Source: an uncultured Verrucomicrobiae bacterium
GTDB lineage: Bacteria > Verrucomicrobiota > Verrucomicrobiia > Chthoniobacterales > JAATET01
DNA: 64,000 nucleotides
Direction of reading: 5' to 3'
Assembly (NCBI GenBank): GCA_963719495.1
Contig: CAVRCI010000006.1
Location: 64,001-128,000, forward strand
Part shown: piece by piece, positions 15,005 through 31,778 of the stretch
Layout: the number at the start of each line of letters is the position of its first letter
How positions within the stretch are numbered: position 1 is the stretch's first letter
Position numbers and translations under genes: made by a program
The notes under the pieces: model-generated
Seen by the model: only the letters and a program-made list of their open reading frames with translations
Told to the model about the DNA's origin: nothing
The model's database searches: none

Positions 15005-15231
15005 CTCCTTCCGCTAGATCCCCAAAAGTTTTAGTTATTTAGTAAAACAGAACAAAAATAATTTCTAGGAAAAGCAATTTCAATACTTCCGTTGCGGCAC
15101 CCTTCGCCGCATGGCTCCCGACCGGATGGGGAAAAACTTTCTATGCAGGAAGATTTTTCTTGATTTTGCTTTGGCGCCGTATTACAATAAGGCGTCAGCC
15201 GGTCTTTTATCAGGTGATTAGAGACCGTTGC

Positions 15232-15550
15232 GTGAACAAAACCTAAAAGAATAATCAACCTCAAAAGCCCTGTCACTCTCACTGAACAGCAAACGAACCT
15301 GCTCCTCCTGGTCGCAGAGAATCCGTTCGCGGACTTGGAATTCCTTCGGTGGCTTCGACCAAGCTGGAGCGGGTGGATGGCCTCGGCAATGGCGTCGCTC
15401 AAAGCCGAACTCAAGCTCGTTCACATGGCGGGTCGCTGCGAATATTCGCTCACCGAATCTGGAAGACGGTTCGTCGAAAACGTTGGAGCGGAATGCCCAA
15501 CGAACGTGGTCTTCGTCAATTTCCGCTCCAACCTCGAGGAGGCGGCCTGA
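15232..15550 (+). CDS. Small winged-helix-like protein (start uncertain; GTG at 15232 needs a one-base shift in an A-run)
   Basis: LTEQQTNLLLLVAENP...YSLTESGRRFV wing motif; abuts the next gene. Confidence 0.45.
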
Positions 15551-15551
15551 T

Positions 15552-15965
15552 ATGAGCGCGCTGACGGTTACCCAGACATTCTTGGACCGGTTGGGTCTCC
15601 CCTACCGCGCGGTCGGCGACTTCGCGTTCGAGGCGGAAGTCGAATGCAATAACGACCCCGCCGCGTGTTTGTTCATGCTCGCAGGAAACGATCTGGAAGT
15701 CGCGTTCATGCTGCCCTTCTACACCTTCGTGACCGACGAACTCTGCGCGTCCTTGGCTAACGTCAACCACCAGCTTCCAATGGGGCAATTCGTTGCCTGC
15801 GAGCAACTGAACGTCGTATCTGCCAACCTCGGTGTGCCAACGGGAAAAAACATGAGCCCCGAAATGGTGCAACTGGCCTACGAAGTGACCAAAGACCTCG
15901 TCGAGGCGTGGGCGGAAAAAGTGTGGGACGCAGCGTTGACGGCACTCGAAAATGAGGACGCGTGA
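15552..15965 (+). CDS. Hypothetical protein, YbjN/type III chaperone-like fold
   Basis: 137 aa, acidic; FLDRLGLPY and LANVNHQLPMGQF pattern. Confidence 0.55.
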   Translation: MSALTVTQTFLDRLGLPYRAVGDFAFEAEVECNNDPAACLFMLAGNDLEVAFMLPFYTFVTDELCASLANVNHQLPMGQFVACEQLNVVSANLGVPTGKNMSPEMVQLAYEVTKDLVEAWAEKVWDAALTALENEDA

Positions 15966-16227
15966 AGCGTCCGGCAAAAGCGAGGCCCGAAGTGCTCCAA
16001 CTCGAAGGAGCTTTGCGGCGGAGTCAGCGTCGTGCCAGCCCCCAACTTTGGCCTATCCCATTCACACCAACAACTCCATCCCTCCCGCTCGCACGCGACC
16101 ATTGACAGGGATTTCTGAACCAATGAACGGAATGATCCCGGAGATGCGGACGGCGAGGACCCCGGCGACGGTGAAGTTCGACTCGTCGCCTCAACTTGCG
16201 AGCGCAGAAGGAACCTGATCGGGAAAT

Positions 16228-17301
16228 TTACCGGAGCCGGATCTGCCGGGGAGGTTTCTGGTTAAACTGGGGGACTCGAAAGTCGACTTCCACCCTGCCT
16301 TCGGATTTGAGCTGTCGCAGCACGTCTTCGGAGTGCTGCCGCTTGACGCCATGTCCAAAACACACTTCGACCACCTCCATTTCATTGGCGCACTTTCCCG
16401 TCAAGATTTTCTCCCGTAGGTCCGCCGCGAATGCCCGCAGCTTTGTTGGCTCCTCGAACATCTCAAGCGAGAGAAACGGAGCGTGGTCCTGAAAATCTTC
16501 CTGGTTGATGTCGAAGTTCGCTTCGCCGTTGAGGGTGTCCTTCGTCCAAGCTGTGTTTAAGAATTTGTCCATCCCAAGAGGATGAGCACTCCCAAAAATC
16601 AACCCGTAGAGCTGCGAACCTTCCTTTTTGATCGAGAACGGCGCAAGGTAGTAGTGCAGGTTGGCGGCGATAAAGGTTCGGTAGAGCTCCACCACTGCTC
16701 GGTGGCAATGGTAGAAGCTATCCGATTTTTTGATCCGCAATCTCATCGCGGGGTGCTCACTGAATCGGTGAAGAAATGATGATGCGACGAATAACAGAAA
16801 GTCGGTGGTGGGTGCGCTGATGAGTTGTCGGAAAACTTCGTCGTCGACGTGGTTCACCCCACAGGGATCAATCAAAACGAGATTGGCAGTGTCCGAGCGG
16901 TGAAAGATCGGCAGCGCCCGCCTAAACGATTCTTCGAAAGGTATCGACCGAACATCCAGCGTTGCATGGGGAAGTTTATCTACGAGCGGACGGAGGTAGG
17001 ACTCGAGCGCCCGCGTTTTCTCTGCATCGGCATCGGAGAAATGAAAATGGAGTTTGATCTTTCCGTCGCTGAGTCGATGTCGGCATTCCAGTGCTTCCCG
17101 CACGACGCGAACGGGGCTGCCGGCCGTGCCCTCGACGTCCTGACCCGGACCAGCGAAGAAATCGAAAATGTGAACTTCGGGCCAGACCGGTTCCGGTCGG
17201 CTTAAAAATACTGGCAGCCACTCCCGGGCATAAAGCTGAAAGAGCTCCAGCTTTGCGAGCGTTCCCTGATCGAAGGGTTTCTCGTGGAAATCCGGTCGCA
17301 C
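16228..17301 (-). CDS. tcmP: Three-Cys-motif partner protein
   Basis: TLAKLELF..Y...W, IFDFFAGPG, GSP, LIDPCG, YGLIFGSAH; adjacent to DUF5131. Confidence 0.85.
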   Translation of the reverse strand: MRPDFHEKPFDQGTLAKLELFQLYAREWLPVFLSRPEPVWPEVHIFDFFAGPGQDVEGTAGSPVRVVREALECRHRLSDGKIKLHFHFSDADAEKTRALESYLRPLVDKLPHATLDVRSIPFEESFRRALPIFHRSDTANLVLIDPCGVNHVDDEVFRQLISAPTTDFLLFVASSFLHRFSEHPAMRLRIKKSDSFYHCHRAVVELYRTFIAANLHYYLAPFSIKKEGSQLYGLIFGSAHPLGMDKFLNTAWTKDTLNGEANFDINQEDFQDHAPFLSLEMFEEPTKLRAFAADLREKILTGKCANEMEVVEVCFGHGVKRQHSEDVLRQLKSEGRVEVDFRVPQFNQKPPRQIRLR

Positions 17302-17312
17302 GTCGGTTCCTT

Positions 17313-18101
17313 CTAGGCAGCAATCAGGTCGTTAAGAAGTCGGGCACGGCTGGCGGAGGACGCAACCGGACTGGCTTCTATTTTAGGAAACTCGCTGTAG
17401 GTGCGACCATCGAGCGTCCGGCCATTCTCTGCCTTGCGGACACCGCCCCATTGCTTGAAGAAGAAGGGAACCCGCTGGGCGCGGCACTGTGCCCGAACGG
17501 ACCGAACCCATGCCGCTTCGATTGGCCGGGCTCCATGCCCACTTTCGCCGCCGACGATCGCCCAGTGAATGCCTTTGAGGCTGAACTCACCCAAATCTTC
17601 AATCAGCGGCTCGATGGAGAGAAACGCCACGGCAGGCTTCGCCTTTCGGAGCAAATCGATACGGGGAAGACCATGTGACCTGTCCTCCACACTCACACCC
17701 CACCAGATATGGGAGGCCGCAGCGGCTTTTTTGAGCTTCGTCCGTAGCAAGCGGCTCATGCGGTCCGCACGCTTGGTCAAAATCTGGTAGGTGTGCCAGT
17801 TGGCCGCCATCATCACCCGGCAGACACTCTCCACGAAATCGTCCGGCACGTCAGGGTGAAAGAGGTCGCTCATCGAGTTGACGAAAATTCGGCGAGGGGT
17901 GCTCCAGCGAATCGGATCGCCAAGTTTCTCGGGAACCAAACGCAGGTCAAAACCGAATTCGAATGGATGACCGGGAACACCCCGGAAGCGCTCAGCGAAG
18001 GTCTCGGCATAGCAATGCTTGCAGCCCGCGCTCACCTTGGTGCAGCCACGCACCGGATTCCAAGTCGAGTCTGTCCATTCGATTTTCGATTTCTCGCTCA
18101 T
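17313..18101 (-). CDS. Phage Gp37/Gp68 family protein (DUF5131)
   Basis: KIEWTDSTWNPVRGCTKVSAGCKHCYAE, FVNSMSDLFH, QILTKR, IVGGESG, FFFKQWGG. Confidence 0.95.
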   Translation of the reverse strand: MSEKSKIEWTDSTWNPVRGCTKVSAGCKHCYAETFAERFRGVPGHPFEFGFDLRLVPEKLGDPIRWSTPRRIFVNSMSDLFHPDVPDDFVESVCRVMMAANWHTYQILTKRADRMSRLLRTKLKKAAAASHIWWGVSVEDRSHGLPRIDLLRKAKPAVAFLSIEPLIEDLGEFSLKGIHWAIVGGESGHGARPIEAAWVRSVRAQCRAQRVPFFFKQWGGVRKAENGRTLDGRTYSEFPKIEASPVASSASRARLLNDLIAA

Positions 18102-18267: not shown

Positions 18268-19953
18268 CTAGGGGAGACAATTTTCAAGTCTGGCGAGGAG
18301 TTCGAGGGCTTTTTGGACTTCGTGCTCGTAGAGCGGAGAATCCCCCCCGTGGGCCCCTGGGTTGAGGACTCGCTCGGTAGTTTTGAGCACTTCGTCGATC
18401 AGAGCGACGTTCTCCATGACCTTCCAATTTTCGTCCTTGAGCAGGGAGCGAAGGTGCTTGCGGGAACTCTTGAGTCTGCCGCGGTCGGCTGGGTCGAGGC
18501 CGGGAAGCGCGTCAACGTCATCGTCGCTCGCGGGGATTAGGTGGTCACGCTGCGCTTCGGGCGTGCCGAGGAGGACGCGGGCATAGAGGCGGGCCGGAAG
18601 CTTTTCAAGCAGACGATGCCGGGCAGCGCGTAGGTTTTCGGTCAGAGAGAAAAACTCGCCGGGGGGCAGCTTTTTCTTGTCAGCCCATTCACGGTAGCGC
18701 TTGGCCATGTCGTCGGCGGCTTTACGAAGGCAGACGGCGGCTTCGTCGAGTTTGTGGCCATGCAGATAGTCTTCGGCTTTTTGAAGCTCGGTCTTTTCGC
18801 TCTGCGATGTAATGGATGTTGCGGGGTCCCCCACAAGACGAACGAAGGACCAGTCGGGGTGGCTCGGGCCGATTGTGCGTCGAAACTCTCGGTAGAAGCC
18901 GAGGTCGTGAGTGAGGATGATTTTTTGGTAGTTTGCCAAAGCCCCGTCGGTAAGCAGGATTGCAACGACCTTCATCCGGTTACTCGTGTCGAGGCTGACG
19001 AGGAGGTCGTCTAGGACGAGGAGCTTGAGATCTGACTCGTGCAGGTTAACGAGCGAGGCGGCGAACCGGACGGAAAGCGCGAGTTGTGTGAGCTTTGCTT
19101 CGTTCAAAAAGCTCTGCGGCCGAGTGATGGTCTTTCCTGGAATTTGGATTCCGAATTTGATTTCAGGCTTTGTGAATGTCCGCGAATCGAAGTCGTAAGA
19201 TGGGAGTTTTGTAACTCCAAGTTTGAGCGTTATTTTCGACTTGTCGTCGGAGGAAAAATGCTTGTCGTAGAAACGTTGTGCCTCAGTGCTGATTCCATCC
19301 ACGATACCGGGCAGGATTGCGGCGAAGGCTTGCGTGTCCGCGATAAAACGGTCGTAGGCGTATGTTCCCGCCAACCCTTTGTATGCATCGGGGTTCGGAC
19401 TCTCTGACTTGATGGCCTGCCAACTCTCCAGAGGAACCTTCCCCCCTGTCGAGACACAGAAGGGCAGGATTTCGTCCTCAAATAGCGGCCAGAGGTTCAG
19501 CTCTTTAGAATTACGGAAATGGGAGAAGCCAAAGAAGAAGCGGTATGTGATGAAGTCACTGGCTAGGTCACCTTTAAGAATGGCTGGCTGCTGCTGAGTG
19601 CCATGGACGGTTTGCCCGTTTGCATCTCTTCCAATTCGATAGGTGGTATCGGTCTTGGTCGCCATATCACGCAACGTCACAGCGATCTCGCTTGGTCGAG
19701 GGTTTGGGTCTGTTTGTTCGTGAGTGTTGAGCAGATTTTGCAAAACTGCGGGATCGAAATATTTTGCGATTCCTGTATCACCTAATGTCGGTTTACGGGC
19801 GCTTTGCAGGAACGTGTATAGAGACCAGTAGAGGGACGACTTGCCGGCTCCGTTGTCGCCGTAAACAAGGAGGTGGCGGCCTTCTAGGTTGAGCATGAAC
19901 TCGCGGAAGGCTTTAAAGTTGGTAATCTCAATTTTGTGCAAGCGGGATTTCAT
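18268..19953 (-). CDS. ABC-type ATPase with probable C-terminal HEPN domain (PrrC/RloC-like architecture)
   Basis: Walker A GDNGAGKSS, FLNEAK signature, Walker B LVLDDLLVSLD, ILTHD; C-terminal CLRK...RVLNPGAH. Confidence 0.75.
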   Translation of the reverse strand: MKSRLHKIEITNFKAFREFMLNLEGRHLLVYGDNGAGKSSLYWSLYTFLQSARKPTLGDTGIAKYFDPAVLQNLLNTHEQTDPNPRPSEIAVTLRDMATKTDTTYRIGRDANGQTVHGTQQQPAILKGDLASDFITYRFFFGFSHFRNSKELNLWPLFEDEILPFCVSTGGKVPLESWQAIKSESPNPDAYKGLAGTYAYDRFIADTQAFAAILPGIVDGISTEAQRFYDKHFSSDDKSKITLKLGVTKLPSYDFDSRTFTKPEIKFGIQIPGKTITRPQSFLNEAKLTQLALSVRFAASLVNLHESDLKLLVLDDLLVSLDTSNRMKVVAILLTDGALANYQKIILTHDLGFYREFRRTIGPSHPDWSFVRLVGDPATSITSQSEKTELQKAEDYLHGHKLDEAAVCLRKAADDMAKRYREWADKKKLPPGEFFSLTENLRAARHRLLEKLPARLYARVLLGTPEAQRDHLIPASDDDVDALPGLDPADRGRLKSSRKHLRSLLKDENWKVMENVALIDEVLKTTERVLNPGAHGGDSPLYEHEVQKALELLARLENCLP

Positions 19954-22900
19954 ACGCGCCCCTCTTGTTTGATGACGGCGAGAAGATCGGGGCTGTCGGC
20001 AGTGAGGCGGAGAAGACGGTTGCGGATGGGGTGGCTGGGAGCGTTGAGGGTGGTGTGCAACCCGGTAAGTAATTCCCTCAGCGTCCTCTCGTTGGCGGCG
20101 GGGTCATAGTCCGCGAGGTGCGGGGACACGGTGTCGTGGAAGAGCAGGTCTCGTTCGGCCATGTGCTCGCGGAAGTAGCTCTCCATCACGCAGGCGTCGA
20201 TGAGGTCTTCGAGGAATGCTGCGGGGGCGGTTTCTCCCTGCGCTTTGGCGAACTGGATGAGGGGGACTAAGCACTCAAATAGGCTCACCTCGGCGGCGGC
20301 GGGTCTCTTGATGGAGATTTTGTCGAAAAAGACAGCGAACAAGCGGTATGCGTTCCCCGAATACTCAGGGAAATTGTCGCGGAAACAGCAGCGAAAAAGG
20401 TGCGAGTTTAGAACTGCTGTGAGGTAATACAACGACTCGACTTGGCTGGTCATCATCCAACAAGTGTTGTTGAAGAAAAAGCCGTCGCTTTGGTCCAAGT
20501 AAAACGGCATCTGCTGGGCGATGTCCTGGTATATAATCTTCGGCCCGCGGAACAGATTGAGATAGTCCTCTGTAGGGTTGTTGTCCAATTCGAGCCAATG
20601 GTGTTGTCCAGGAAACGGTTTGTTCGGGTCTTTTCGTTTCCGCTCTCGCCCGTAGCTGCATTGACCGCGAGCCTGAAGCTGCGGCTTGTGCTGGATCAAG
20701 TGTTGATATACGGCAGGATACTTCTGCTCAAGATACTCGTATGCGCCGAACTTTACGATCAGTTGATAGGCATCGGCCCAATTTGTCTTGTAGCGCTCGA
20801 TGTCACGACCTCGAAGCAACCTTACAATCATTTCAGCGCTAGCAGGGTCTCTGGCGATCAACTCATCACGCTGGCTCTGATTCAAATAAAACGCTTCATT
20901 GTAGCCCGTAATGATTCCTCGCGAAATCTGAAGCGACCACTTCTCAAGTGGAATGCCTTGCTTGATGACTTTTACCCGAATGGCCTGACGCTCAGGTGAC
21001 ACTACCACCCAAGGCTCTGAATTAAGGTTTTGAAGCACTACGGCGTGGCTTGCAAAGTATCCAGCAGGGTCTGCCATCGCGGCCTGATCATCTGAAACAT
21101 AGCAGGCCAATGTGGAAGATTTGGAATCTTCGTTGGCGATCTTTAGGACGCAGGTGTAGGTGGTTGCGGCACCAAAGTTCTGGGCCATGCCAAAATCCAA
21201 AACGGATTCGGTGTTCAGGGATGCAAGAAGGCCTCGCAGTGATTCGCCGTAATTGGACCGCATCCATTTATTTGATGTGATAAAACAGAGACGGCCACCT
21301 CGACAAAGAAGCTGGCAACCTTGCTCATAGAAAAAGCAATAGACATCACCTCGTGCGGCGTAGGTCGCAAAGTTCACCTTCCACTTTTCTTGGATTGGCG
21401 TTCCCGCGAATCGTTCGACCGAGATGTAGGGCGGATTGCCTATGACTATGTCGAAGCCGTCCTTCAAGGAGCGACCGAACATCCAATGCGGATCGAAGAA
21501 GTCGGCGGTCGATTGGGGATCGAAGGGATCCCAATCGGCGAGGTGGGCGGCTTTCGCGGAGTTCACGGCTCCAAGACTGCCCGCGAGCGTCTCGGCGAGC
21601 TTAATGCGCAGGCCTTTGATCTTCTTCTGCAACGCCAGCTTCTGGTCGCGCCGCTGTATGGTGAAGTGGCTGTGGTAGGCGTCTTCGATTTCCTTTTCGA
21701 TGGGGGCGATGAGGGACTCGATGAAGAGGTCTTTGTCCGAGATCGGCAGGCCGATGAGGGTGTCGGCGGCGACAAACTTCGTTTCCAGATTGGGCAGCGG
21801 ACGGATTCCGTGATTGTCCTTTTTGTTGCGGTTGGTCTTCTGGTCGCAGACGAGGGAGATGAAGAAGCGGAGTTTGGTGATCTGGATGGCGATGGGCTGG
21901 ATGTCCACGCCGTAGAGGCAGTTCTCGATGAGGTAGAGCTTGCGGCCGTAGTCGTCGTTGTTTTCGGCGAAGGCGCGTTCGAGTTCCTCGCGCATGGGGG
22001 CGGAGTCAAGCTTGGCGAGCTGGGTCTGCTTCCAGCGGTCGTTGTCGGGGTCGAGTTTGCCGAGGATATAGACGAGCTTGTGGAGGACGCCCATAGGGAA
22101 AGCGCCGGAGCCGCAGGCGGGATCGAGGATTTTCAGGGCGTCGATGGCGTCGATTAGAGCGGCGACTTCGACGGGCGTGAAGGCGTGGTCTCTCTCGGTG
22201 TAGGCGAAGAGGAGGTCGAGGCCGGCGCGGGCGTCGGATTCCACCATGCGGACCCTTTCTACGAGGGCACGGGTGAGGTGGGCTTTGAGGGACTCGTCCA
22301 CCATGTAGTCCACGATGGGGCGTGGGGTGTAGAAGGAGCCGGTCTGCTTGCGGGCGGTGGTTTTGGTTTCTTCGTTGTAAGAGGCGAGGAGGTTCTCGAA
22401 AACTTTGCCGAGGAGTTCGGGGTCGAGGGCTATTTCCTGATCGATGGGGGTGTTCTCGACGATGGTGAACTTGTAGCGGTTCAGGATGGTGATGAGGCCG
22501 GTGACGCGCTCGGCCTTGCGCTTCTTGTCGCCGTAGGCTGTGGAGAGGTCGGCAATTTCCCCACTGTCGAAGAACAGGCGGTCGGGGATGTGGGGGCGCT
22601 TCTTGGGATTGCGGGAGAAGCCATCGAGGTAAAGTTTCTTGTTTGTGCCTTCCTCGGTGCGGTCGAGGCACTCGAAGAGTCCACCATTGAGGAAAGGAAT
22701 GTCGGCGAAATGCGTGAGGGCGACGTCGGGGCCGTCGGCGAAGAGGCTTTCGTAGCGGTAGAGATTATTGACGTCGTAGGTGGCGCGGTTTTTCTGGAAG
22801 CCCTCGTCGGTTGCGAAGATGCGGTAGGGTTTGCCGTTGCTGTCCTTGCCCATGCGCTGGTTGAGCGTGGCAAAGAAGAGATTTTGCAGGATGGCCTGGT

Positions 22901-23792
22901 AGTAGGTGGAGCTGGTCTCGCTTTCGGGATCGAAGCCCTTGAGAACTTTGGCGAGATCGGTGGGGTGGAAGAGTTGCTCGGGGATGAGGCCCTTTTCCTT
23001 GAGGAACCAGCAGAAGATGAGTCGGGTGAGCAGGCGGATGAGTCCGGTGGCGCGGCGTTTCTCGTCGTCGGGTTCGAGGTCGGCGGGGAACTCGACCTGC
23101 GGGAGCGCCCAGAAATACCAGTTGGCGAGTTCCTTGTAGAAGCGCTCGTTGAGCAGGTCGACGTTGAAGATTTGCTCCCACGCGGCATGAAGGGTGTCGA
23201 AGTCGGTGATGGGCAGCTTCTTCGGATGTTTGAGTTCAGACAGCGCGAGCGAGGCGAGGATGTCTTGGTGGCCACGGTGGGGATTCGCGATGGAGATGTC
23301 GCGGATGAGGGTGGCTTTTTCGAGGACGTCCTTGCTGTCGTCGATCTTGTTCCGTCGACGGTTGATGACGGCGATGGTGAGCCGGTCGCCGTGTTTGAAG
23401 ATCACCATGACGGGCATGGGGAAGAGGCGGTTGATCTGGCGGGTGATCGCGGAGAACTTGCCGCGAGCGTAATCGGTGCCCTTCAGCTCGATGGCGATGA
23501 AGATGTAGGACTTGAGCAGGGCGCGCTGGACGGAGTCGTCGGTGAAGAGGCTGGATTCGCGGCCGAGTTCCCGATCGGTGAGCTGAAAGAGGAGGTCGGC
23601 GGATTTCCACTCTGGCACGAGGGCCTTGACTTGGTCGAACGGGTGGCCGGCGGCGAAGTCAGCGAGGAAGTCCTGCGGCTTGGAACCTGCGCCGACGAGG
23701 AATTTGTCGCTCTTGTAGCCGAGCTTCGCGAGCAGCTGGCGGGCCGCGTCTTTGAGCGGTAGGGACTGGAAATTGGCGAGAGTGGCTTTCAT
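19950..23792 (-). CDS. Type IIG-like restriction-modification enzyme / N6-adenine methyltransferase (Eco57I, TaqI-C type TRD)
   Basis: FLNGGLF, GSFYTPR, ILDPACGSGAF, IVIGNPPY, FITSNKW. Confidence 0.92.
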   Translation of the reverse strand: MKATLANFQSLPLKDAARQLLAKLGYKSDKFLVGAGSKPQDFLADFAAGHPFDQVKALVPEWKSADLLFQLTDRELGRESSLFTDDSVQRALLKSYIFIAIELKGTDYARGKFSAITRQINRLFPMPVMVIFKHGDRLTIAVINRRRNKIDDSKDVLEKATLIRDISIANPHRGHQDILASLALSELKHPKKLPITDFDTLHAAWEQIFNVDLLNERFYKELANWYFWALPQVEFPADLEPDDEKRRATGLIRLLTRLIFCWFLKEKGLIPEQLFHPTDLAKVLKGFDPESETSSTYYQAILQNLFFATLNQRMGKDSNGKPYRIFATDEGFQKNRATYDVNNLYRYESLFADGPDVALTHFADIPFLNGGLFECLDRTEEGTNKKLYLDGFSRNPKKRPHIPDRLFFDSGEIADLSTAYGDKKRKAERVTGLITILNRYKFTIVENTPIDQEIALDPELLGKVFENLLASYNEETKTTARKQTGSFYTPRPIVDYMVDESLKAHLTRALVERVRMVESDARAGLDLLFAYTERDHAFTPVEVAALIDAIDALKILDPACGSGAFPMGVLHKLVYILGKLDPDNDRWKQTQLAKLDSAPMREELERAFAENNDDYGRKLYLIENCLYGVDIQPIAIQITKLRFFISLVCDQKTNRNKKDNHGIRPLPNLETKFVAADTLIGLPISDKDLFIESLIAPIEKEIEDAYHSHFTIQRRDQKLALQKKIKGLRIKLAETLAGSLGAVNSAKAAHLADWDPFDPQSTADFFDPHWMFGRSLKDGFDIVIGNPPYISVERFAGTPIQEKWKVNFATYAARGDVYCFFYEQGCQLLCRGGRLCFITSNKWMRSNYGESLRGLLASLNTESVLDFGMAQNFGAATTYTCVLKIANEDSKSSTLACYVSDDQAAMADPAGYFASHAVVLQNLNSEPWVVVSPERQAIRVKVIKQGIPLEKWSLQISRGIITGYNEAFYLNQSQRDELIARDPASAEMIVRLLRGRDIERYKTNWADAYQLIVKFGAYEYLEQKYPAVYQHLIQHKPQLQARGQCSYGRERKRKDPNKPFPGQHHWLELDNNPTEDYLNLFRGPKIIYQDIAQQMPFYLDQSDGFFFNNTCWMMTSQVESLYYLTAVLNSHLFRCCFRDNFPEYSGNAYRLFAVFFDKISIKRPAAAEVSLFECLVPLIQFAKAQGETAPAAFLEDLIDACVMESYFREHMAERDLLFHDTVSPHLADYDPAANERTLRELLTGLHTTLNAPSHPIRNRLLRLTADSPDLLAVIKQEGRV

Positions 23793-24832
23793 CGGGGTTC
23801 GTCGCTGAACTTTTCTTCGGCGCGTTGGAGGGTGAATTGGAGTTCGCGGCGAAGTTCTTCGCGGTCGGGCAGGTAGAGTTGGTATTTCTGCACGAAGAGC
23901 TGGCTGTTCATCTGGTAGGTGGCGTATTCCACGAGCAACTCATCCTTGTGTCGGGAGAGAATGATGCCGATGGGCGGGTTGTCGCCTTCGAGATTCTCCT
24001 CGGTGGCGAAGTAGCCGAGATACATGTTCATCTGGCCGATGTCGTGATGCTCCACCTTGTCCATTTTCAGGTCGAGGAGGACGAAACAGCGCAAAATGCG
24101 ATGGTAGAAAACGAGATCGACGCGGAAGTGGGTGTTGTCGAGGGTGATGCGGTATTGTCGGCCCACGAAGGTGAAGCCTTTGCCAAGCTCCAGTAGGAAC
24201 GGCTGGAGGTGGTCGCAAAGCAGACTCTCCAGTTCGGTCTCCGTAAGGTGAGCGGGTTCCGGGATTTTGAGAAACTCGAAAACGTAGGGATCGCGGAGCA
24301 GTTCCGCTGGTTGCGTCGCACTCTGCCCCTCTCGCGACAGCGCCAAAATCTCTTCCCGATCCTTTCCCGCGGCAAGCCGGAGGAAAAGCGAGGTCCGTTT
24401 CTGCCGCAGCAACTCTTTCACGCTCCATTTCTCCGCGATGGCCTGTTTCTCGTAAAAACCGCGTTCCAATCCGTCATTGATCGAGAGCAACTCGACGTAG
24501 TGCGACCAACTCAATTGTCCAGACAGCGTCTGGACTTTTGGAAAAGCCAGATAAAAGGCCTTCATCGTCATCACGTTGCTGCGGCTGAATCCCTTGCCGT
24601 GCCGGAGGGTGAGATCCCTTGCCAACGTCGCCACCAACCGCTTGCCGTATTCCGCACGAATGCTGCCGCCCTGCTCGAACTCCACAATGTCGCGCCCGAT
24701 CTCCCAATACGTCTGCGTGAGCTGGACATTGACGGCCTGGATCGCCCGCGTCTGGCCGGAGGTGTAAACCTCGGAAATCTTTCCCAGCAGGCGCTGATAG
24801 CCGGTATCGGTATCGGTGGCGAGGTCGCTCAT
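23789..24832 (-). CDS. YhcG/DUF1016 PDDEXK nuclease domain protein
   Basis: YWEIGRDIV, LSWSHY, RDPYVFEFL, LLELGKGFTFVGRQY, DLVFYH, GQMNMY. Confidence 0.95.
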   Translation of the reverse strand: MSDLATDTDTGYQRLLGKISEVYTSGQTRAIQAVNVQLTQTYWEIGRDIVEFEQGGSIRAEYGKRLVATLARDLTLRHGKGFSRSNVMTMKAFYLAFPKVQTLSGQLSWSHYVELLSINDGLERGFYEKQAIAEKWSVKELLRQKRTSLFLRLAAGKDREEILALSREGQSATQPAELLRDPYVFEFLKIPEPAHLTETELESLLCDHLQPFLLELGKGFTFVGRQYRITLDNTHFRVDLVFYHRILRCFVLLDLKMDKVEHHDIGQMNMYLGYFATEENLEGDNPPIGIILSRHKDELLVEYATYQMNSQLFVQKYQLYLPDREELRRELQFTLQRAEEKFSDEPR

Positions 24833-27800
24833 GTCTTGTCGTCCTTGATGACCAGCCAGGTGACGAGTTCGAGGTCGGTCTTTTCGTGGACCTGATCTTT
24901 CGCGTCGGGCAGGACAAAGCCTCGTCCGGATTGCAGACCGGAGGCGGCCCGCTTGCGGAAGGTGGCGGCGAGGGAGTCAACGGCTTTTTTCAGCAGCGCA
25001 TCGTAGGCTTTCATCTCACTTCCATGGTTGGTCTCCTGGTCGAAGACATTGCAGAGCTGGGTGTCGGCTTCCGCTTTCCCGGAGCAAAGGAGGCGGTAGA
25101 TGTCGAGAATCTGCTTCGGGTGGGCGAAGCCGAAGCGGACGTTGCCGTCGTCGAGGACGTAAACGAGGAAGTAGGGATGGAGCGGGTTGATCGACTCGCT
25201 GGGTGTGGGTTTGGTGGCGAGTTCTCCGTCGCGGTGGCCCTCCAACCGGAAGCAGAAGATAACGCCGGGGCCGATGACCTTGTAGTCGGGATGCGGCGGG
25301 ACGCAGGTGTAGAGGCCGAACGGGGCGGCTTCGAGGGCCTCCTTGTTCGCCTCGATGTATTTGAGGAGTTCGAGGCGAAAGTCGTCGAGGGTGAACTCGG
25401 TGAGCGAAACGCTGTCGCCGAGGTCTTCGAGATCGAGAATCTCGTCTTTGAGCCGAAGGAGCTGTTTGTCGCGGTAACGGAGGTCGTCGGAGATGATGTC
25501 CTCGATTTCCTCATTCTTGAGCACGTTATCTTCGAAGGTGGCGGAGAGGTCCACGAGGGCCATGCGGGCCTCGACGCGGTTCTTGAGGTTGATGTATTTG
25601 TTGAGGTCCTCGGTGGGCCAGAAGTTCACGAGGTGGACAACCGAATTGACGCTGCCGATCCGGTCGATCCGACCAAAGCGCTGGATGATGCGGACGGGAT
25701 TCCAGTGGATGTCGTAGTTGATCAGGTAATCGCAGTCCTGGAGGTTCTGGCCTTCGCTAATGCAGTCCGTGGCGATGAGCAGGTCGATCTCACCCTGTTG
25801 CGGCATGGACGGAATTTTGGCGCGGTTTTTGGCTCGCGGAGAAAAATTGGTGAGAATTTGATCGTATGCGCCCTGGCCGAAGGTAGTGCGGGTATCACCG
25901 CCGCCGCAAACGAGGGCCAGATGAATGCCGAGTTCCCCGTGGGCCCATTCGAGGAGTGACTCGTAGAGGTAGGTGGCGGTATCGGCGAAGGCGGTGAAGA
26001 CGAGAACCTTTCGGTTCGGCTCGCCGAGCTTGTTCGTCGTGGGATCTTTGACCTTGGCCGCGATGAGCTTCTTGAGGTCCGCGAGCTTGGCGTCGGTCTC
26101 GGGAGTCACGTCCTGCGCGGCGTTGTAGAGGATACGAAGTTGGTCCTTGTCGCGCTTGAGGGCTTTAAGCCAGCCGTCCTCGCCGTCTAGGCGGAGGTGG
26201 TCCAATCGAAACTTCAGATTGCCGCCCACCTGCATGGCGTCTTCGAGGTCTTCGTCGTGACCAGGGTCGTCGAGTTCCAACTCGAGGTCCTCGGATTCGG
26301 GGCTCTGCTTCGGCAATTCCTGGAAGTTTCTGATCTTCCGTTCGAGGCTCTCGATCTTGGCGATGGTGCGCTCCATCGTGATCTCGAAGGATTTCACGGA
26401 GCTTTCGAGGCGCTTGAGGAAGTTCACCTTCATCATGCCGATGAGGAAGGTTTCGCGCCCCGCCTGGGTGAATGGGAAAGCCCCCGTTTTTTCGTAGTCG
26501 GCTTTGTGCTCGGGCAACACGAAACGCGAGGGATTGAAGAGCGCGAGTTTGTAGCCGGCGATTTCGTCGTTGAGTTTGTCGTAGGAGAGGAAGCGTCCGC
26601 GGAGGTCGATCTCGGGGTAGATGGAGACGGGCTTCTCGCGCTTCGGGAAGCCGCCGAGCTGGGCGATGGTGGCCTTGTAGTATTTCTGAATGTGCTTGCG
26701 CGAGCGGGCGATGGTGACTTCGTCGAGGAGCTTGAAGAAGGCGGCGTTGAGCTTCTCCAGCAGTTCGCCGGTCCTCCGCTCGTGGGTTTGCTTTTTCGCC
26801 CAGACGGAGAAGACCTTTTGCGCGGTGGCGAGGGTTTCTTTGAGGCTGCCGACGCCGATGGATTCCGCGAAGGCGTCGTCGCGGTTCTCGGTGAGGAAGT
26901 AGAGCTGGTTGCGGAGGTCCTTGAGGTCGTTGTTGACCGGGGTGGCGGAGAGGAGGAGGACCTTGGTGCGGACGCCGGATGTGATGATGTCGTCCATGAG
27001 GCGCTGGTAGCGACTTCTGCGGATGATGTTTCCTTCCTCGTCCTTCTTGCCGGGCGTGTTGTTCCGGAAGTTGTGCGACTCGTCGATGACGATGAGGTCG
27101 TAGTTGCCCCAGTTCAACGTCGCGAGGTTGATGTCGCCCGAGTAGCCGGTCTCGCGGCTGAGGTCGGTGTGCGAAACGACATCGTAGCGGAAGCGGTCGG
27201 CGACGAAGGGATTGAGGAGGCTGTTGGCTTTGTAAACCGTCCAGTTGTCGCGGAGCTTTTTCGGGCAGAGAACGAGGACGCGCTCGTTCTTCAGCTCGAA
27301 GTATTTCATGACGGCGAGCGCCTCGTAGGTTTTTCCGAGGCCGACGCTGTCCGCGATAATGCAACCGTTGTGGCGGAGAATTTTGTTGATGGCACCCTTG
27401 GCCCCGTCCTTCTGGAACTCGAACAGCGCTTTCCAGACACCACTCTCGAAGAGGCTGGTCTTGCCGAGATCCGCGTCGGTCTTGCCCGCGTCGCCGAGGA
27501 ACTTCTCGAAGACGTGAAAGAGCGTTTTGTAGTAAATGAACTCCGGCGGGTTGTTCTCGTAGAGTTGCTTGAGGTAGTTCAGGACGTCCTCTTTGACGTC
27601 CATCACAAGGGTTTCGTTGCCCCACAGTTCCTCGAACCATTGCTTGAGTTCCTGACGGTCTCGGTTGCCGTCGACGATGAGGTTCAGCTCGATATTGTTG
27701 CCTGCGTTGCCAAGGCCGAGGCCGCGAACGGTAAAGTTCGAGCTTCCGAGAATGGCGTCCTCCACGCCGCCGGTGGCGACGTGATACATCTTCCCGTGAA

Positions 27801-28167
27801 GGAGATTGGATTGCTTGATGGTCTTGATGTCCACCTTGCGTTTGATCCAGTCGGCGCACTCCCTGGCAACGCGTTTTTGCTGGAGCCGGTTCGAAAGTTC
27901 CAAACCGTCGGCGTCGATGATGAAGGCCTTCTTCTCGGTCTTGTTCGGGTCGAGGCGGTTGACGAAGGACGGCTCACCGAAGAGGAAGTCGAGGTGTCCG
28001 ATGCGCTCGAGTTCTTCTTTGAGGGCGTCGTAGGCGCAGATCGTGAAGTAGGCGGAGACAATGGAGAGTTTCGAGCCGGTCTGCGCTTTCGTCCGCAGGA
28101 AGTCGGCGACGGTTCCGCGAGTGTGGTTGTCGCGAAGGCCCGAGTCGTTTGTTGATGAAGGTGTCAT
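24829..28167 (-). CDS. SNF2-family helicase with N-terminal phospholipase D (PLD) nuclease domain
   Basis: HGKMY...GSSNFT (PLD); ADSVGLGKT, DESHNFRN, SATP, SEGQNLQ, QRFGRIDR. Confidence 0.92.
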   Translation of the reverse strand: MTPSSTNDSGLRDNHTRGTVADFLRTKAQTGSKLSIVSAYFTICAYDALKEELERIGHLDFLFGEPSFVNRLDPNKTEKKAFIIDADGLELSNRLQQKRVARECADWIKRKVDIKTIKQSNLLHGKMYHVATGGVEDAILGSSNFTVRGLGLGNAGNNIELNLIVDGNRDRQELKQWFEELWGNETLVMDVKEDVLNYLKQLYENNPPEFIYYKTLFHVFEKFLGDAGKTDADLGKTSLFESGVWKALFEFQKDGAKGAINKILRHNGCIIADSVGLGKTYEALAVMKYFELKNERVLVLCPKKLRDNWTVYKANSLLNPFVADRFRYDVVSHTDLSRETGYSGDINLATLNWGNYDLIVIDESHNFRNNTPGKKDEEGNIIRRSRYQRLMDDIITSGVRTKVLLLSATPVNNDLKDLRNQLYFLTENRDDAFAESIGVGSLKETLATAQKVFSVWAKKQTHERRTGELLEKLNAAFFKLLDEVTIARSRKHIQKYYKATIAQLGGFPKREKPVSIYPEIDLRGRFLSYDKLNDEIAGYKLALFNPSRFVLPEHKADYEKTGAFPFTQAGRETFLIGMMKVNFLKRLESSVKSFEITMERTIAKIESLERKIRNFQELPKQSPESEDLELELDDPGHDEDLEDAMQVGGNLKFRLDHLRLDGEDGWLKALKRDKDQLRILYNAAQDVTPETDAKLADLKKLIAAKVKDPTTNKLGEPNRKVLVFTAFADTATYLYESLLEWAHGELGIHLALVCGGGDTRTTFGQGAYDQILTNFSPRAKNRAKIPSMPQQGEIDLLIATDCISEGQNLQDCDYLINYDIHWNPVRIIQRFGRIDRIGSVNSVVHLVNFWPTEDLNKYINLKNRVEARMALVDLSATFEDNVLKNEEIEDIISDDLRYRDKQLLRLKDEILDLEDLGDSVSLTEFTLDDFRLELLKYIEANKEALEAAPFGLYTCVPPHPDYKVIGPGVIFCFRLEGHRDGELATKPTPSESINPLHPYFLVYVLDDGNVRFGFAHPKQILDIYRLLCSGKAEADTQLCNVFDQETNHGSEMKAYDALLKKAVDSLAATFRKRAASGLQSGRGFVLPDAKDQVHEKTDLELVTWLVIKDDKT

Positions 28168-28389
28168 TGAGCCGTGAAAGTGATCATGCGGACAATCCGC
28201 CCGTCGGGAACGGAGAAACGATCTTCAGGTTTGGCGCTAATTCCTGTCGCGGGAGATATTTTTGGCCGCGAAGAGGGGTGGGTAGTTCCAGAAAATAGAG
28301 AGCGTCCGGGAGCCAGCACAAATGCCAGACGCTGTCAAATTAAGAGTCATCTGGCGAGGAAATCCCGATGAGAGGGAGACGTGGGACAT

Positions 28390-28422
28390 AAAAAAATCCC
28401 GGGGAGCTGGGCTCCCCGGGAT
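28390..28422 (-). terminator. Rho-independent terminator for minus-strand transcription
   Basis: Perfect 12-bp stem ATCCCGGGGAGC/GCTCCCCGGGAT followed by a T-run on the minus strand. Confidence 0.75.
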
Positions 28423-28481
28423 CGTTCCGCGTTATTGATGGCTGTCGTGATGTCGAGCATGATGGTGACTCGTTCGTCACC

Positions 28482-28874
28482 ATGAAACCCGGCCCCACCC
28501 CTGAAGCTCGTCTCCGCCATTGCGGCATCGATCTCGATGACGTTGAGGAGAGCTTTGCTCGCAGTAGCGGTCCAGGTGGCCAAAATGTAAACAAGGTCGA
28601 AACCATGGTGAGACTGATCCACCGTCCCAGCGGAATTGCGGTCGCTGCGTCAGAACATCGGTCGCGTGAAATGAACCGCCGGGCTGCTTGGGAACGTCTG
28701 GCAGGAAAGTTCGAGGCCTTGGACGAGGCTCGGAAGCTGGAACGAGCTGCAAAAAGATCCCAAAAACGAGCTCAATCCGGACGGCGACCGCCGGGCGTGA
28801 AGCGGAAGATGCTCGAAGCGAAACGCCGCCGAGGAGAGGCGAAGAAGCTCCGAGGGAAAGTGCAGGACGGCTAG
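28482..28874 (+). CDS. arfB: ArfB/YaeJ-like peptidyl-tRNA hydrolase (island-borne intact copy)
   Basis: FARSSGPGGQNVNKVET, HRPSGI, RSREMNR and basic tail KRRRGEAKKLR. Confidence 0.85.
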   Translation: MKPGPTPEARLRHCGIDLDDVEESFARSSGPGGQNVNKVETMVRLIHRPSGIAVAASEHRSREMNRRAAWERLAGKFEALDEARKLERAAKRSQKRAQSGRRPPGVKRKMLEAKRRRGEAKKLRGKVQDG

Positions 28875-30547
28875 CCGGACTTCTTTGGGGCTGATGTTGG
28901 TGGGTTGCGGACGGGGGAGGACATCAGGCGCTGTTTCATTCCGTTCCGGTATTCGATGACGACGTAGGGCCAGTCATTTGCCGGGAGGTTTTCGACCTCC
29001 GTTCCCTTGAATTCCGGCGCGTGGCCGAAGCGGAAGGCGGTTATGGATCGCACGCGGCGCCGAATTTCCATTTGCAGCGCGAGTCGGTTTTTCGGATCAC
29101 CTTCCGAAATGAGGGCTTTGAACTCCACGATGCCTTCGGCGACGGAATTACGGGCGGCAGCCATGTGGTCCCGCTGCTCGTATAGATCGTTCAGCTTGGC
29201 TTCGGTGTCTTCAAGTTCCTGGGCTGCGGCGGCGGCCTTTACCTTCGCGGCTTTCAGCAGCGGGTCCGGCATGTCGGCCATGTTATCGAGAAATTTACCG
29301 ATGTCGGCCTGGAGCTTGGCGGTGTGCATTTCGGTCTCGGCGATTTGGGCATCGAGCTTGTCGCACTCATCGTCTGGGCCTTGGCGGACAAGAGTCGCCC
29401 AGTCGAGTTGCTTTAGATGGTTGAGGACGATCTTTTCAAAATGCGCGTAAGGCCAGAATTGGCTCTTGGTGCCGTCGTGAAGGCTTACATCGGACCGGAG
29501 GTAGCGTTGATCTCCACGGTTGCGAGCCTGGCCCCTTGAAGACTTATCTATATAGTGCATCTTGTTTCCGCTGTAACCGTCGATGACGAGGCCGGAAAAA
29601 AGGTTGTTCGTCCTCAATCCGCGAGGGCCGGTGGGAGCCTTCGGGCGGTTGTGAGCGCCTTGCCAAAGCTCGGGTGAAATGACGGCGGGGTAATATCCCT
29701 CAATGGGAGGTCCATCCGGGATACGGCTGCGGGTTTCGGAGCCGAGGCGGTGAGGCTGGTAGATTCCGAGGGCGGCTTTGTTGTTTAGAAAATACAGGAT
29801 GTTGCTCGACGCTCAACGCGGGCCGTCTCCCCATGTCTGAATGCCTTCGTTGTTGAAGGTCCGGGCGATGAGACGTTTTCCGAGTCCTTTTCCAGCAAGT
29901 TCGAACATCCGAACGAGCAGCGAAGCGCGGTCGGAGATGACGCTGTAGGCCTTGGTGCCGTCCTCAGATTTCGTCAATTCAAGCCAAGCGGGGCAGAGTT
30001 TGCTCTGCGGCGTTTTAGTTTCGGCTGCCACGAGACGCTTTTTTGCCCAGGCTTTGGCGACGCGGTGGCCTTTCATGGCTGACTCCTCATGCGCCCGCAC
30101 CATCATCAGAATCGAGAGAATGAGGTCAGTGGGATTTTGGTTGATGGCGTCGCGGTTGTAAGCCTTCTCGTCTGCCAGCGTAACGATGGTGATGCTGGCC
30201 CTGATGATGTTGGTGAACAACGCAAGCGCGTCCAAGATCTCGGTGCGGCTCAACCGGTCGAGTGATTCCACGAGAAGGGTCGCCCCAGCGGGAATGCGCC
30301 CGGTCTCAATGGCAGTCATGAATCCCGCGAGGGCTCCTTCGGTAGCATTGCGGCCCCGGTATGCACTGACTCCGAGGTCCCTGAGATTCAGGCTGTAATC
30401 AAGGCGAAGCCCGATTACGGCGGCGTATTCCTCGCTTGCTTCGGTTTGGCGCCGCAGGCTGTCGCCCTGCATCTGCTGCAGCGATGAGAAGCGGATATAC
30501 GAAAAGGCTAGGGACCTTGTTTTTGTCGGATGGGTACGATTCTCCAT
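28871..30547 (-). pseudogene. Large serine recombinase with in-frame TGA at 29813-29815
   Basis: YIRFSS.QQ..GDSLRRQ, DLGVSAY, VESLDRLSR, RAHEES, YYPAVIS, NLFSGL, coiled coil; both ORFs share one frame. Confidence 0.88.
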
Positions 30548-30621
30548 CCTGAGCTTCTCCTGTCCTCGCTGGGGCAGGTGAAGCGCTATTTTCTGAGAAA
30601 GTAAACTTTTTTGGAGGATTG

Positions 30622-30647
30622 GGCCAGCACCTGTTGACGTGCTGGCC
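30622..30647. other. Putative att junction GGCCAGCAC-CTG-TT-GAC-GTGCTGGCC
   Basis: 9-bp perfect inverted arms around a central TT, exactly where arfB similarity stops. Confidence 0.7.
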
Positions 30648-30746
30648 ACCCGGTCCGCTGGCCCGCGCGATGAGGACGTGCAGATCGTCCTCGCGCACGC
30701 CGAGGCGCGCGAGGCGGGGTGCGAATTCATCCGGGATGATGGGCAT
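30634..30746 (-). pseudogene. arfB: 5' part of the host arfB-like gene, interrupted after GGQHVN
   Basis: MPIIPDEFAPRLARLGVREDDLHVLIARASGPGGQHVN, then unrelated sequence; host-like GC3. Confidence 0.8.
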
Positions 30747-30836
30747 CGGGCGGAAACTAGCAGACAATGGCCGGGACGAAAAGGGACGCCGTCGTTGACG
30801 CTGGCCCGGCGCACCTGCTACGTCGATTAATCAACG

Positions 30837-31778
30837 ATGCCCGCCACCCACCAAATCGAATCCGACGCCGCCGGGACCCACGACGTCCTGAAGAACGCCG
30901 ACGCCGGCATTCGCCTCGTCGTCGCCCGCACCGGGGCGGAACCGATCAGCCTGGCACGCCGCGCCGCCGATGGGTCGTGGGTGGGATTCCTCCATCGCGA
31001 CGGCGAGACCGGGAAACCGGCGGACGGGTGGGCGAATCACGCGACGGTGATGGGCTACTACCTCCACCGGCTGGTCGAGGAGCGGTCGACGTATCGCGAC
31101 GCGGTCATCACGGGCGGGAATCACGGTTTTCTCCGCAGCTTTGCGTTCGCCGAGCCGACCTTCGACGCCGGGCGCGGCTCGCTCACCTACCACGTGGCCG
31201 CCGCGGACGTGCCGCCAGCCGCTTATCCTCTGCGGGTGGCGCTCGATCTGACCTACCGGCTCGACGGTGAGGCGCTGCGGGTGGAATTCGAATTTCGCAA
31301 CGAAGAACCCGCGACCGAGGCCCACGTGAGCTTCGGGCTGCACCCGGGGTTTGCGGTCACGTCCGTGCTCGACGCGGACGTCATTTTTCCGGCGGGGACC
31401 TTCGTTCGCCACCGCGCGCCCGATAATTTCCTCGATGGCCACACGGAGCGCATCCCCTACGGTGGTGGGCTGATGCCGCTCGCCAAGGACGACCTGCCGG
31501 GCTCGTTCCTGCTGGGACTCGACGAGGTGCCCGACCCGCGGTTCACGCTCCGCGACGAACGGGCGGGACGCGAGGTCGTTTGCGATTTCGCCGGCTGCCC
31601 CTACGTCACGATCTGGAGCGACCTCGGCCCCTTCATTTGCATCGAACCTTGCTGGGGATTGCCCGACAGCCGACCGCAACGACCTTTCGAGGACAAGATC
31701 GGCATCCAACGCATTGCGGCGGGCGGCTCGCTGCGGGCCGGCTTTTCGATTCATCCGCGACTTCTCGACCGATCATGA
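30837..31778 (+). CDS. Aldose 1-epimerase family protein
   Basis: NHGFLR, YPLRVALDLTYRL, FGLHPGF, FICIEPCWG. Confidence 0.8.
   Translation: MPATHQIESDAAGTHDVLKNADAGIRLVVARTGAEPISLARRAADGSWVGFLHRDGETGKPADGWANHATVMGYYLHRLVEERSTYRDAVITGGNHGFLRSFAFAEPTFDAGRGSLTYHVAAADVPPAAYPLRVALDLTYRLDGEALRVEFEFRNEEPATEAHVSFGLHPGFAVTSVLDADVIFPAGTFVRHRAPDNFLDGHTERIPYGGGLMPLAKDDLPGSFLLGLDEVPDPRFTLRDERAGREVVCDFAGCPYVTIWSDLGPFICIEPCWGLPDSRPQRPFEDKIGIQRIAAGGSLRAGFSIHPRLLDRS

Follow-up and report, generated by a model that had tools for sequence, protein, structure and literature searches.

A probable large serine recombinase island in an arfB-like gene of a Chthoniobacterales bacterium carries a complete arfB-like gene of its own

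Why would an island that lands inside a host gene bring with it a complete gene of the same family? The question is raised by a stretch of 64,000 nucleotides (the window) of an uncultured Verrucomicrobiae bacterium of the order Chthoniobacterales (GCA_963719495.1, contig CAVRCI010000006.1, positions 64,001 to 128,000; genome G000), in which the 5' part of an arfB-like gene, a large serine recombinase (LSR) gene and a complete arfB-like gene in opposite orientation lie side by side (Table 1). We consider it likely that the region from about 15.0 to 30.65 kb of the window is a genomic island inserted by the LSR into the native arfB-like gene, with a core of about 2.3 kb formed by attP, the LSR gene and the carried arfB-like gene, a variable restriction/defence cargo, and a carried copy that takes over the role of the host gene. 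The original prediction, made from the letters alone, had described a host GGQ gene cut directly after its motif, an LSR beginning about 85 bp further on and a single CTAG shared by two stop codons, and all of these features were found as described.

The native fragment (minus strand, 30746->30633) encodes MPIIPDEF...ARASGPGGQHVN, and past 30633 the resemblance to arfB-like proteins is lost. The 18-mer GGTGGCCAGCACGTCAAC at this end occurs a single time in the window (30633-30650), with at least one match, allowing up to 3 mismatches, in 4 of 100 shuffles. Against the intact 130-aa protein of G004, a genome of the same genus, the fragment shows 89% identity over residues 1-38. The DNA similarity to the intact arfB/epimerase locus of G004, 82.7% over 2,635 bp, stops exactly at window position 30634, and thus the native gene is truncated directly after the Asn codon of GGQHVN. 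The neighboring aldose-epimerase-like gene has close relatives in 24 of the 31 related genomes searched, and the twelve best epimerase loci, that of G000 included, were inspected. An intact arfB-like gene, adjacent to and divergent from the epimerase gene, was found in five genomes of one family, here f1 (G001, G003, G004, G010 and G011), and the same native arrangement is present in G120, G341, G148 and G270 of a second family (f9), which gives nine genomes in all. The empty site that was to be sought in relatives, an intact arfB divergent from the epimerase, does exist. At the epimerase loci of G013 and G014 an arfB-like gene is present in another arrangement, and G002, G005, G006 and G012 have no arfB-like gene within 1.5 kb of the epimerase. 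Two unpublished genomes (G016 and G172) contribute rows to this tally of epimerase relatives and to the order-wide tally of the island protein given below, and to these only. Past the junction, the frame of the native gene remains open for 122 codons in total (30399-30767, minus strand) and overlaps the start of the LSR in another frame; given this open frame, transcription from the native arfB promoter could run into the recombinase gene.

The LSR gene starts at 30547, 86 bp past the break point. Its product contains a Resolvase domain (PF00239, 61 bits, residues 14-171) followed by a Recombinase domain (PF07508, 38 bits, residues 206-301), and reads YIRFSSLQQ around a serine that is the putative nucleophile. 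About 250 residues follow the Recombinase domain; no match to the C-terminal zinc ribbon PF13408 was found in the protein, a match that is precomputed for just 1 of the 27 closest homologues (P0016). These 27 homologues are part of an alignment of 28 sequences (A1), in which the column of codon 245 is Trp in at least 90% of the sequences. In G000 this codon is a TGA, the only interruption of a frame that is otherwise continuous and has no frameshift. The G000 gene is consequently without a full-length open frame; the orthologue of G013 is intact. One public DNA run contains 39% of the sampled words, as low-depth contigs, and one of these contigs spans the TGA and shows no difference; this run is probably the source sample itself and hence gives no independent support. 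None of the public runs listed as containing words of the window is an RNA run.

The attachment sites were defined by comparing the junction of G000 with both junctions of a related element in G013, a genome from a different genus of the same family, and with the attL of G072. In the arfB sense, attL joins GGTGGCCAGCACGTCAAC to AGGTGCTGGCCCAATCC in G000 and GGGGGGCAGAATGTCAAC to AGGTGCTGGCCCAATTC in G013, and attR of G013 joins GGGGTAATTGGGCCAGCACGTCAAC to AAGGTCGAGACT. Since both junctions are present in G013, attB could be reconstructed together with attP, which is ATTGGGCCAGCAC-GTCAACAG-GTGCTGGCCCAAT, a 34-bp palindrome with two perfect 13-bp inverted arms and an 8-bp center. The segment common to attP and attB is GTCAACA, which lies in the Val-Asn codons after GGQ, and the symmetry of the site suggests the central AA as the 2-bp crossover. 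The conserved GGQxVN codons had been proposed as attB; the insertion is indeed just after GGQ, whereas the crossover falls in the Val-Asn codons and not in those of GGQ. LSR genes 59-65% identical to ours, which abut other sequences (comM in one case), again have the P' arm, GTGCTG[G/A]CCCAATTCACC, directly before their start. Such conservation of the arm on other targets would fit an arm that is the binding site of the recombinase itself, with the choice of target shifting within the clade.

Further members of the family were seen at other sites. Three LSRs 47-62% identical to the G013 orthologue (L042, L044 and L046) have the same element arm and abut another, in part palindromic, sequence (…GAGCGTTTCAAGAA…); a single 102-kb contig holds two of these LSRs, oppositely oriented. 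LSRs of the wider family (L049, L048 and L050) have comM as their insertion site, either at the motif AAAGNHNLL or beside the Walker A codons. The comM gene is a known insertion hotspot.

The carried gene encodes a protein matching PF00472 with 87 bits (cut-off 35) over residues 16-124 of 130, with GGQ at residues 32-34. It is a stand-alone RF-1 GGQ domain without the stop-codon recognition domains, and it has a Lys/Arg-rich tail, …RRPPGVKRKMLEAKRRRGEAKKLRGK…. In this it resembles ArfB (YaeJ), mitochondrial ICT1 and C12orf65, the stand-alone GGQ-domain peptidyl-tRNA hydrolases, with which it shares a size of about 130 aa, a single RF-1 GGQ domain, the lack of codon-recognition domains and the basic tail. 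In ArfB such a tail senses the vacant mRNA channel of stalled ribosomes, on which the protein hydrolyzes peptidyl-tRNA. Unlike ArfB proper, it reaches 64.2 bits with the NCBIfam ArfB equivalog model NF006718, whose cut-off is 100, and the native G004 copy reaches 56.7 bits; the best small solved relative by sequence is C12orf65 (7a5h_C, E = 4.6e-10), ahead of Escherichia coli YaeJ (E = 3.3e-7). The identification as arfB made earlier is borne out as regards the GGQ RF-1 domain, but since both copies score below the ArfB cut-off we use arfB-like as the safer name. A complete arfB-like gene in opposite orientation and rich in A/T-ending codons had also been described, and it is present; the host genes on either side have a GC content at third codon positions (GC3) of 0.82-0.87, and this gene one of 0.58. 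The protein has its own complete N-terminus and is just 54% identical to the intact native protein of G004. A search of the whole G000 genome with PF00472 gave prfA, prfB, the island copy and the native 5' fragment and nothing else, which leaves the island copy as the sole whole arfB-like gene of this genome.

Does the pair of LSR and arfB-like gene form a unit, or did the gene simply end up beside the recombinase? The closest LSR homologue with DNA context (P0003, 66-67% identical, intact) is that of G013, and there the order is repeated: an arfB 5' fragment, about 85 bp, the intact LSR and a convergent complete arfB-like gene of 130 aa, 81.5% identical to the island copy. At a distance of about 22 kb on this contig, the same strand has the 3' part of the split gene, starting at GQHVNKVE, and both junctions are thus present. 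The stop codons of the LSR and the carried gene overlap in one CTAG (28871-28874 in the window), an overlap also found in G013 and G072. In tblastx comparisons, the elements of G000 and G013 are similar only across window positions 28,300-30,633, approximately, and the cargo of G013 is different, comprising a type I restriction-modification system, an AAA_21 ATPase, a single-stranded DNA-binding protein and a Vut_1 transporter, among others. Since nothing else is common to both elements, we take attP, the LSR and the arfB-like gene with its upstream region as the mobile core. The proposal that integrase and arfB are a module bringing a whole replacement gene is supported by this conserved core, and the expectation that LSR homologues lie beside a split arfB and a convergent intact one holds for this closest homologue. 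The nearest LSR matches in the protein search are P0002 (75% identical) and P0004 (62%); P0004 and a match to the carried protein, P0149, lie on one 4,749-bp contig, which hints at a third instance of the module.

The gene split by the present element of G013 is itself of the carried type, with 88% identity to the island protein in its 5' part and 70-73% in its 3' part, and is located where a first replacement would lie. A second island has thus landed in an earlier replacement copy in G013.

A much more distant case comes from Novosphingobium sp. Rr 2-17, where an LSR 34% identical to that of G000 starts about 40 bp past a native arfB fragment ending in GGQNVNKV (L068, 3824-4001). The native 3' part, from NKVATAV on, is found on another contig (L329, about 1500-2230), 38 bp past a complete arfB (GGQHVNTT). 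Both junctions contain TCAACAA[A/G]GTC. The carried arfB of Novosphingobium lies at the attR end in the same orientation as the target, an architecture unlike that of G000 and G013. This distant LSR relative thus uses the same arfB codons and brings a whole arfB as well.

These comparisons bear on the view that the arfB-like gene is a chance passenger and that the insertion in arfB is a coincidence. Most of the LSR homologues examined have no arfB nearby and the cargo of such islands is highly variable, as this view would lead one to expect. Yet the gene is part of the one segment that the G000 and G013 elements have in common, with the same CTAG overlap, members of its clade occupy disrupted native loci in several genomes, it has a dN/dS (ratio of nonsynonymous to synonymous substitution rates) of about 0.1, and the same pairing occurs in Novosphingobium with an unrelated architecture. 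We regard a chance association as very improbable.

The history of the carried copies was followed in a maximum-likelihood tree of 34 arfB-like proteins, from which one mis-extracted 296-aa row of G011 was left out and in which the G013 target is represented by its 3' fragment only. The carried copies (ArfB') form a clade of 11 rows with support of 100/99 from four families (six rows from f9, three from f1, one from f8 and one from f2). The native copies follow family lines, with those of f1 in a clade of their own (95/92) apart from the carried one. Forcing all f1 rows into one clade is 127.9 log-likelihood units worse (approximately unbiased (AU) test, p = 0.0013), so that the gene at 28482 does not cluster with the arfB of its host lineage, as the prediction had anticipated. 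Among the 401 genomes of the order covered by the search, the island protein or relatives at least 63% identical are present in 10 (G000, G013, G072, G338, G285, G350, G141, G099, G017 and G394), and all other matches are at most 57% identical. The same gap is seen in the protein database, with about 43 clusters at 64-82% identity and the remainder at 58% or less. In eight of the nine other genomes holding the clade there is a single match at E<=1e-15; G013 has two, the carried copy and the split target.

At several of these loci the element is found in different states of decay. The order in G072 is the epimerase, the native 5' fragment ending in GGQHVN, attL with the P' arm (…GTCAACCGGTGCTGGCCCAATTGACC…), about 40 bp, an LSR tail consisting of the last 40 codons or so, CTAG and the convergent arfB'. 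In G285 the LSR is gone: an inverted arfB' directly adjoins, with its 3' end, the native 5' fragment (which here ends in GPG), and a remnant of the native 3' tail lies about 6 kb further on, upstream of purC. The native 5' remnant beside the epimerase also abuts an inverted arfB in G013 and G014. In the latter the LSR is gone as well and the native tail remnant is beside purC (L244, 4525-8247), which means that the island has shrunk to about 1.6 kb. In G338 arfB' is co-oriented with the epimerase and no remnant of the native arfB was detected; a short open frame (L237, 6105-6690), possibly of PIN/VapC type, lies between them, where the others keep the native 5' remnant. The flanking genes, epimerase, a tetratricopeptide repeat (TPR) protein gene and purC, are unmoved at the replaced loci.

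With the tree and these loci, we could also consider that there was no foreign insertion, and that either a piece of the native arfB was turned around by the recombinase or the arrangement is an assembly artefact of a metagenome-derived genome. Two arfB pieces in opposite orientation do lie around the recombinase gene, the synteny of G000 with its relatives is broken here, and the junction is not bridged by an independent contig. An inverted piece of the native gene should not be complete with its own N-terminus and just 54% identical to the native G004 gene, nor group with copies from other families, and the same junction sequence and gene order are found in the independent assemblies of G013 and G072. 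We give this alternative hardly any weight.

A foreign insertion by the LSR probably proceeded as follows. The LSR would cross over inside the Val-Asn codons after GGQ, on the GTCAACA core common to the host attB and the palindromic attP, and integrate a mobile module of about 2.3 kb (attP, the LSR gene and the convergent whole arfB-like gene with its own upstream region) to which restriction/defence cargo is attached in variable form. The insertion would destroy the host gene and the carried copy would take over its role, staying under purifying selection while the recombinase decays. Across the order, the resident gene has repeatedly been replaced in situ with its orientation inverted, and in G013 a second element has hit an earlier replacement. 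The G000 element itself is stranded and not excisable as it stands, given the nonsense codon in its LSR and the absence of attR and of the native 3' half from the assembly.

The carried copies are under purifying selection, with a dN/dS of about 0.1. Values of 0.07-0.11 were obtained in five of the six pairs among four carried copies, pairs in which dS is near saturation, and in the sixth (G000 versus G285) dS is saturated and no ratio could be computed; the G000 copy gives 0.09-0.10 against other carried copies. Who benefits from the carried gene can be asked in another way. It could serve the element, either because dependence of the host, after decay of the native halves, anchors the island or because the gene counters defences that stall ribosomes, with compensation as a side effect. 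The native halves decay and the carried copy becomes the sole copy, both elements have defence-type cargo, and with precise excision the native gene would be whole again, so that compensation matters just as long as the element stays inserted; all this is in line with a benefit to the element. On the other hand, in two distant LSR lineages the gene that is brought and the gene that is destroyed belong to one family, which is hard to explain unless the loss matters, and the carried gene outlasts the recombinase and most of the cargo at the same locus (as in the 1.6-kb island of G014), as a gene needed by the host would. A role for the element in the first place strikes us as unlikely, and we favor replacement of the host function by the carried copy.

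Several points weigh against our interpretation and are gathered here. Functional compensation is something we infer. G000 has one tmRNA gene, so the loss of an ArfB-like backup need not be lethal, and the rescue activity of the arfB-like gene, which scores below the ArfB cut-off, is putative. The native 3' half was not found in the 16-contig assembly of G000, either in the PF00472 search or by tblastn with the intact G004 protein, which gave only a weak match on contig C14 (E = 0.074). Neither attR nor the second P arm was found in G000, where 12- and 13-mers of the P arm occur at attL and once on C14; the C14 13-mer is likely a chance match, being surrounded by an open coding frame. As no far end was found, the extent of the island and the membership of its cargo are drawn solely from the GC profile, and the left limit at about 15,031 is a purely GC-based estimate because attR and the native 3' half are missing and synteny is rearranged. 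The purC block, which is the downstream flank of arfB in G003 and G001, matches another contig of G000, and synteny within the genus is heavily scrambled, with many rearrangements in a 100-kb comparison of G000 with G003. Due to these rearrangements, a simple inversion between the arfB locus and the homologue of the 781-kb region of G003 was discarded as too simple. The attL junction is not bridged by contigs of the public DNA run.

The pairing itself is narrow, and most LSR homologues target other sites. Among 80 loci on genome contigs an arfB pairing was found in one (G013), besides the distant Novosphingobium locus L068 beside an arfB 5' fragment; in L050 a complete arfB lies about 1 kb upstream of the LSR, which we attribute to chance. 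No arfB was found near the LSR in 80 metagenome loci, nor in 80 viral loci. With flanks of 1.5 kb, the pairing is present at 2 of the 11 LSR places (G000 and G013) found in 9 of 301 genomes of the order. At 59-65% identity, the next homologues in line are inserted elsewhere, one of them in comM. The replacement gene of G014 is outside the carried clade and groups (100/99) with a gene from G323 of family f9 (L245), so more than one arfB lineage has moved and the history is more complex than that of one element family. The genes of G014 and G323 both read GTA AAT at the Val-Asn codons.

How does an element avoid its own spare copy? Some divergence of the carried copy is expected, because a perfect attB inside the element would invite recombination with attP. 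The motif of the carried gene reads GGT GGC CAA AAT GTA AAC, and its lack of the GGCCAGCAC arm had been proposed to give resistance to re-targeting. This is not supported, since the G013 target, GGG CAG AAT GTC AAC, is also without the arm and was still hit. Nor is there support for a recoding confined to the att-like site of the carried gene, given that the low GC3 extends over the whole gene and that an equally deep dip exists elsewhere in it. The Val codon before the central AA could be of more interest. It is GTC in all three observed targets and in attP, and GTA in the three copies linked to an LSR or an LSR remnant (G000, G013 and G072), with GTA AAC in G000 and GTA AAT in G013. GTA is found in two of the eight other rows of the ArfB' clade, and in one of these eight, the GTA-bearing G350, the contig ends inside the gene and linkage to an LSR is possible. 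The association of GTA with LSR linkage has a hypergeometric p of about 0.06, on few rows that are related to each other. GTA in carried copies against GTC in targets is suggestive, but only a hint, of a mark by which carried copies may be immune.

A self-renewing cycle could be tentatively drawn from this, although it may well prove wrong. Each insertion would kill the resident arfB-like gene and install an inverted foreign copy, GTA would keep this copy a poor substrate for as long as the recombinase is present, and after decay of the LSR the copy would drift back to a usable attB and become the landing site of the next island. If true, one small housekeeping gene would be a permanent, moving docking point for defence islands, displaced repeatedly across families.

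In the remainder of the island, GC content drops from 0.64-0.68 to 0.52-0.60 across about 15.0-30.6 kb of the window. The genes of this block (Table 1) are predicted to be a cargo of restriction/defence type. The GC step coincides exactly with a perfect 21-bp palindrome that follows closely on the stop codon of a frame at 15031-15414, GGTGCGTCAAATTGACGCACC (14983-15003), which is terminator-like but without a T run and has the short words GTCAA and GCACCTG in common with the att region. On the distal side of the island, genes for PATR-repeat/PEP-CTERM surface proteins are present in both G000 (13883-14833) and G013 (L333, 2692-10614); no meaningful similarity was found between the PATR-repeat genes of the two genomes, and that of G000 apparently lacks its 5' part.

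Table 1. Features of the arfB-like locus and of the putative island, in window coordinates.
Feature	Position	Strand	Description
Distal low-GC block	15031..16227		Left island limit at about 15,031, from the GC step only
DUF5131 protein (17313-18101) and GMT-wHTH-domain protein (16228-17301)	16228..18101	-	Pfam
SMC/AAA-type ATPase	18268..19953	-	561 aa; Pfam SMC_N, AAA_15
Eco57I-type N6-adenine methyltransferase with TaqI-like specificity domain	19950..23792	-	1,280 aa; Pfam Eco57I, TaqI_C, N6_Mtase
DUF1016/YhcG PD-(D/E)XK nuclease-family protein	23789..24832	-	Pfam YhcG_C, DUF1016_N
Phospholipase D (PLD) nuclease domain fused to SNF2-type helicase	24829..28167	-	1,112 aa; Pfam PLDc_2, SNF2-rel_dom, Helicase_C; in the low-GC block
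Upstream region of the carried gene	28300..28481	+	Distal limit of the stretch conserved with the G013 element (tblastx)
Carried complete arfB-like gene	28482..28874	+	130 aa; GGQNVNKVE; basic C-terminal tail; convergent to the LSR gene
LSR gene	28871..30547	-	558 codons; inactivated by one nonsense codon; Pfam Resolvase and Recombinase
In-frame TGA, LSR codon 245	29813..29815	-	Trp in homologues
attL	30618..30650	-	Host half-site GGTGGCCAGCAC, core GTCAACA(G), element half-site GTGCTGGCCCAAT (P' arm, 30630->30618)
Native arfB-like 5' fragment	30633..30746	-	Codons 1-38, ends in GGQHVN; divergent from the epimerase gene; from translation and comparison with G004
Aldose-epimerase-like host gene	30837..31778	+	Pfam Aldose_epim; syntenic neighbor of arfB in relatives, marks the native locus

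LSR elements inside conserved host genes are well known, as Bxb1 in groEL1, the Ccr recombinases of SCCmec in rlmH, the skin element in sigK and the elements targeting comM. The element described here is similar to such islands and prophages in having a Resolvase and Recombinase enzyme encoded beside attP, inverted-repeat half-sites around a short core and an insertion inside a coding sequence. Known LSR elements leave their target knocked out until excision; here, a whole second copy of the target is part of the conserved core and the replacement becomes permanent as the element decays. We see in this the known mechanism of LSR integration in a variant form, one that includes a whole-gene spare of the target. 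Islands with tyrosine integrases, which insert in tRNA or tmRNA genes or in either end (3' or 5') of housekeeping genes, restore the gene end that they interrupt, as SXT does in prfC. In both cases the element supplies coding sequence of its own and avoids the cost of insertion in a conserved gene. The end-rebuilding elements do so with a short duplicated gene end in the att repeat, which makes the host gene a host-element chimera, whereas here the site is in the middle of the gene, the att identity is about 7-16 bp and a separate complete gene is brought in opposite orientation. Xenologous gene displacement in situ is a known concept of comparative genomics, and the loci described above are similar to it in that a distant homologue from elsewhere in the tree takes the very place of a resident gene, with the flanks unmoved. 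The difference is that the mechanism is visible here, namely the site-specific insertion of an element that carries the xenologue, followed by decay.

A review of integrative and mobilizable elements (IMEs) presents serine-recombinase elements as disrupting target genes dispensable to the host, and tyrosine-integrase elements as preserving the target through the att repeat (PMC5704250). Its passages on these elements have no mention of a carried whole copy of the target (PMC5704250), and the main text of an LSR survey does not contain 'release factor', 'peptidyl-tRNA' or 'RF-1', although its supplementary target lists may hold such targets (PMC10083194). A literature search returned no paper joining arfB with a serine recombinase, nor anything closer than the works named here; the sole paper with both yaeJ and attB is, judging by its listing, about polyketide synthesis.

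Elements with serine integrases are usually described as knocking out their target, and the one reported here carries a complete spare of its own target. This raises the questions of how integrases that carry a copy of their target avoid self-targeting and whether the docking sites of defence islands renew themselves. For the uncharacterized LSR clade, the locus gives a natural attB/attP pair, with a 34-bp palindromic attP and a highly conserved attB in coding sequence, and an intact orthologue of the enzyme exists. More generally, it offers a concrete mechanism, visible in the sequence, by which a housekeeping gene may be replaced in situ by a foreign homologue, and this would explain why one arfB-like clade occurs so patchily in four families. 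A further suggestion is that an ArfB-like rescue factor is important enough in these bacteria that an island bringing a spare does better.

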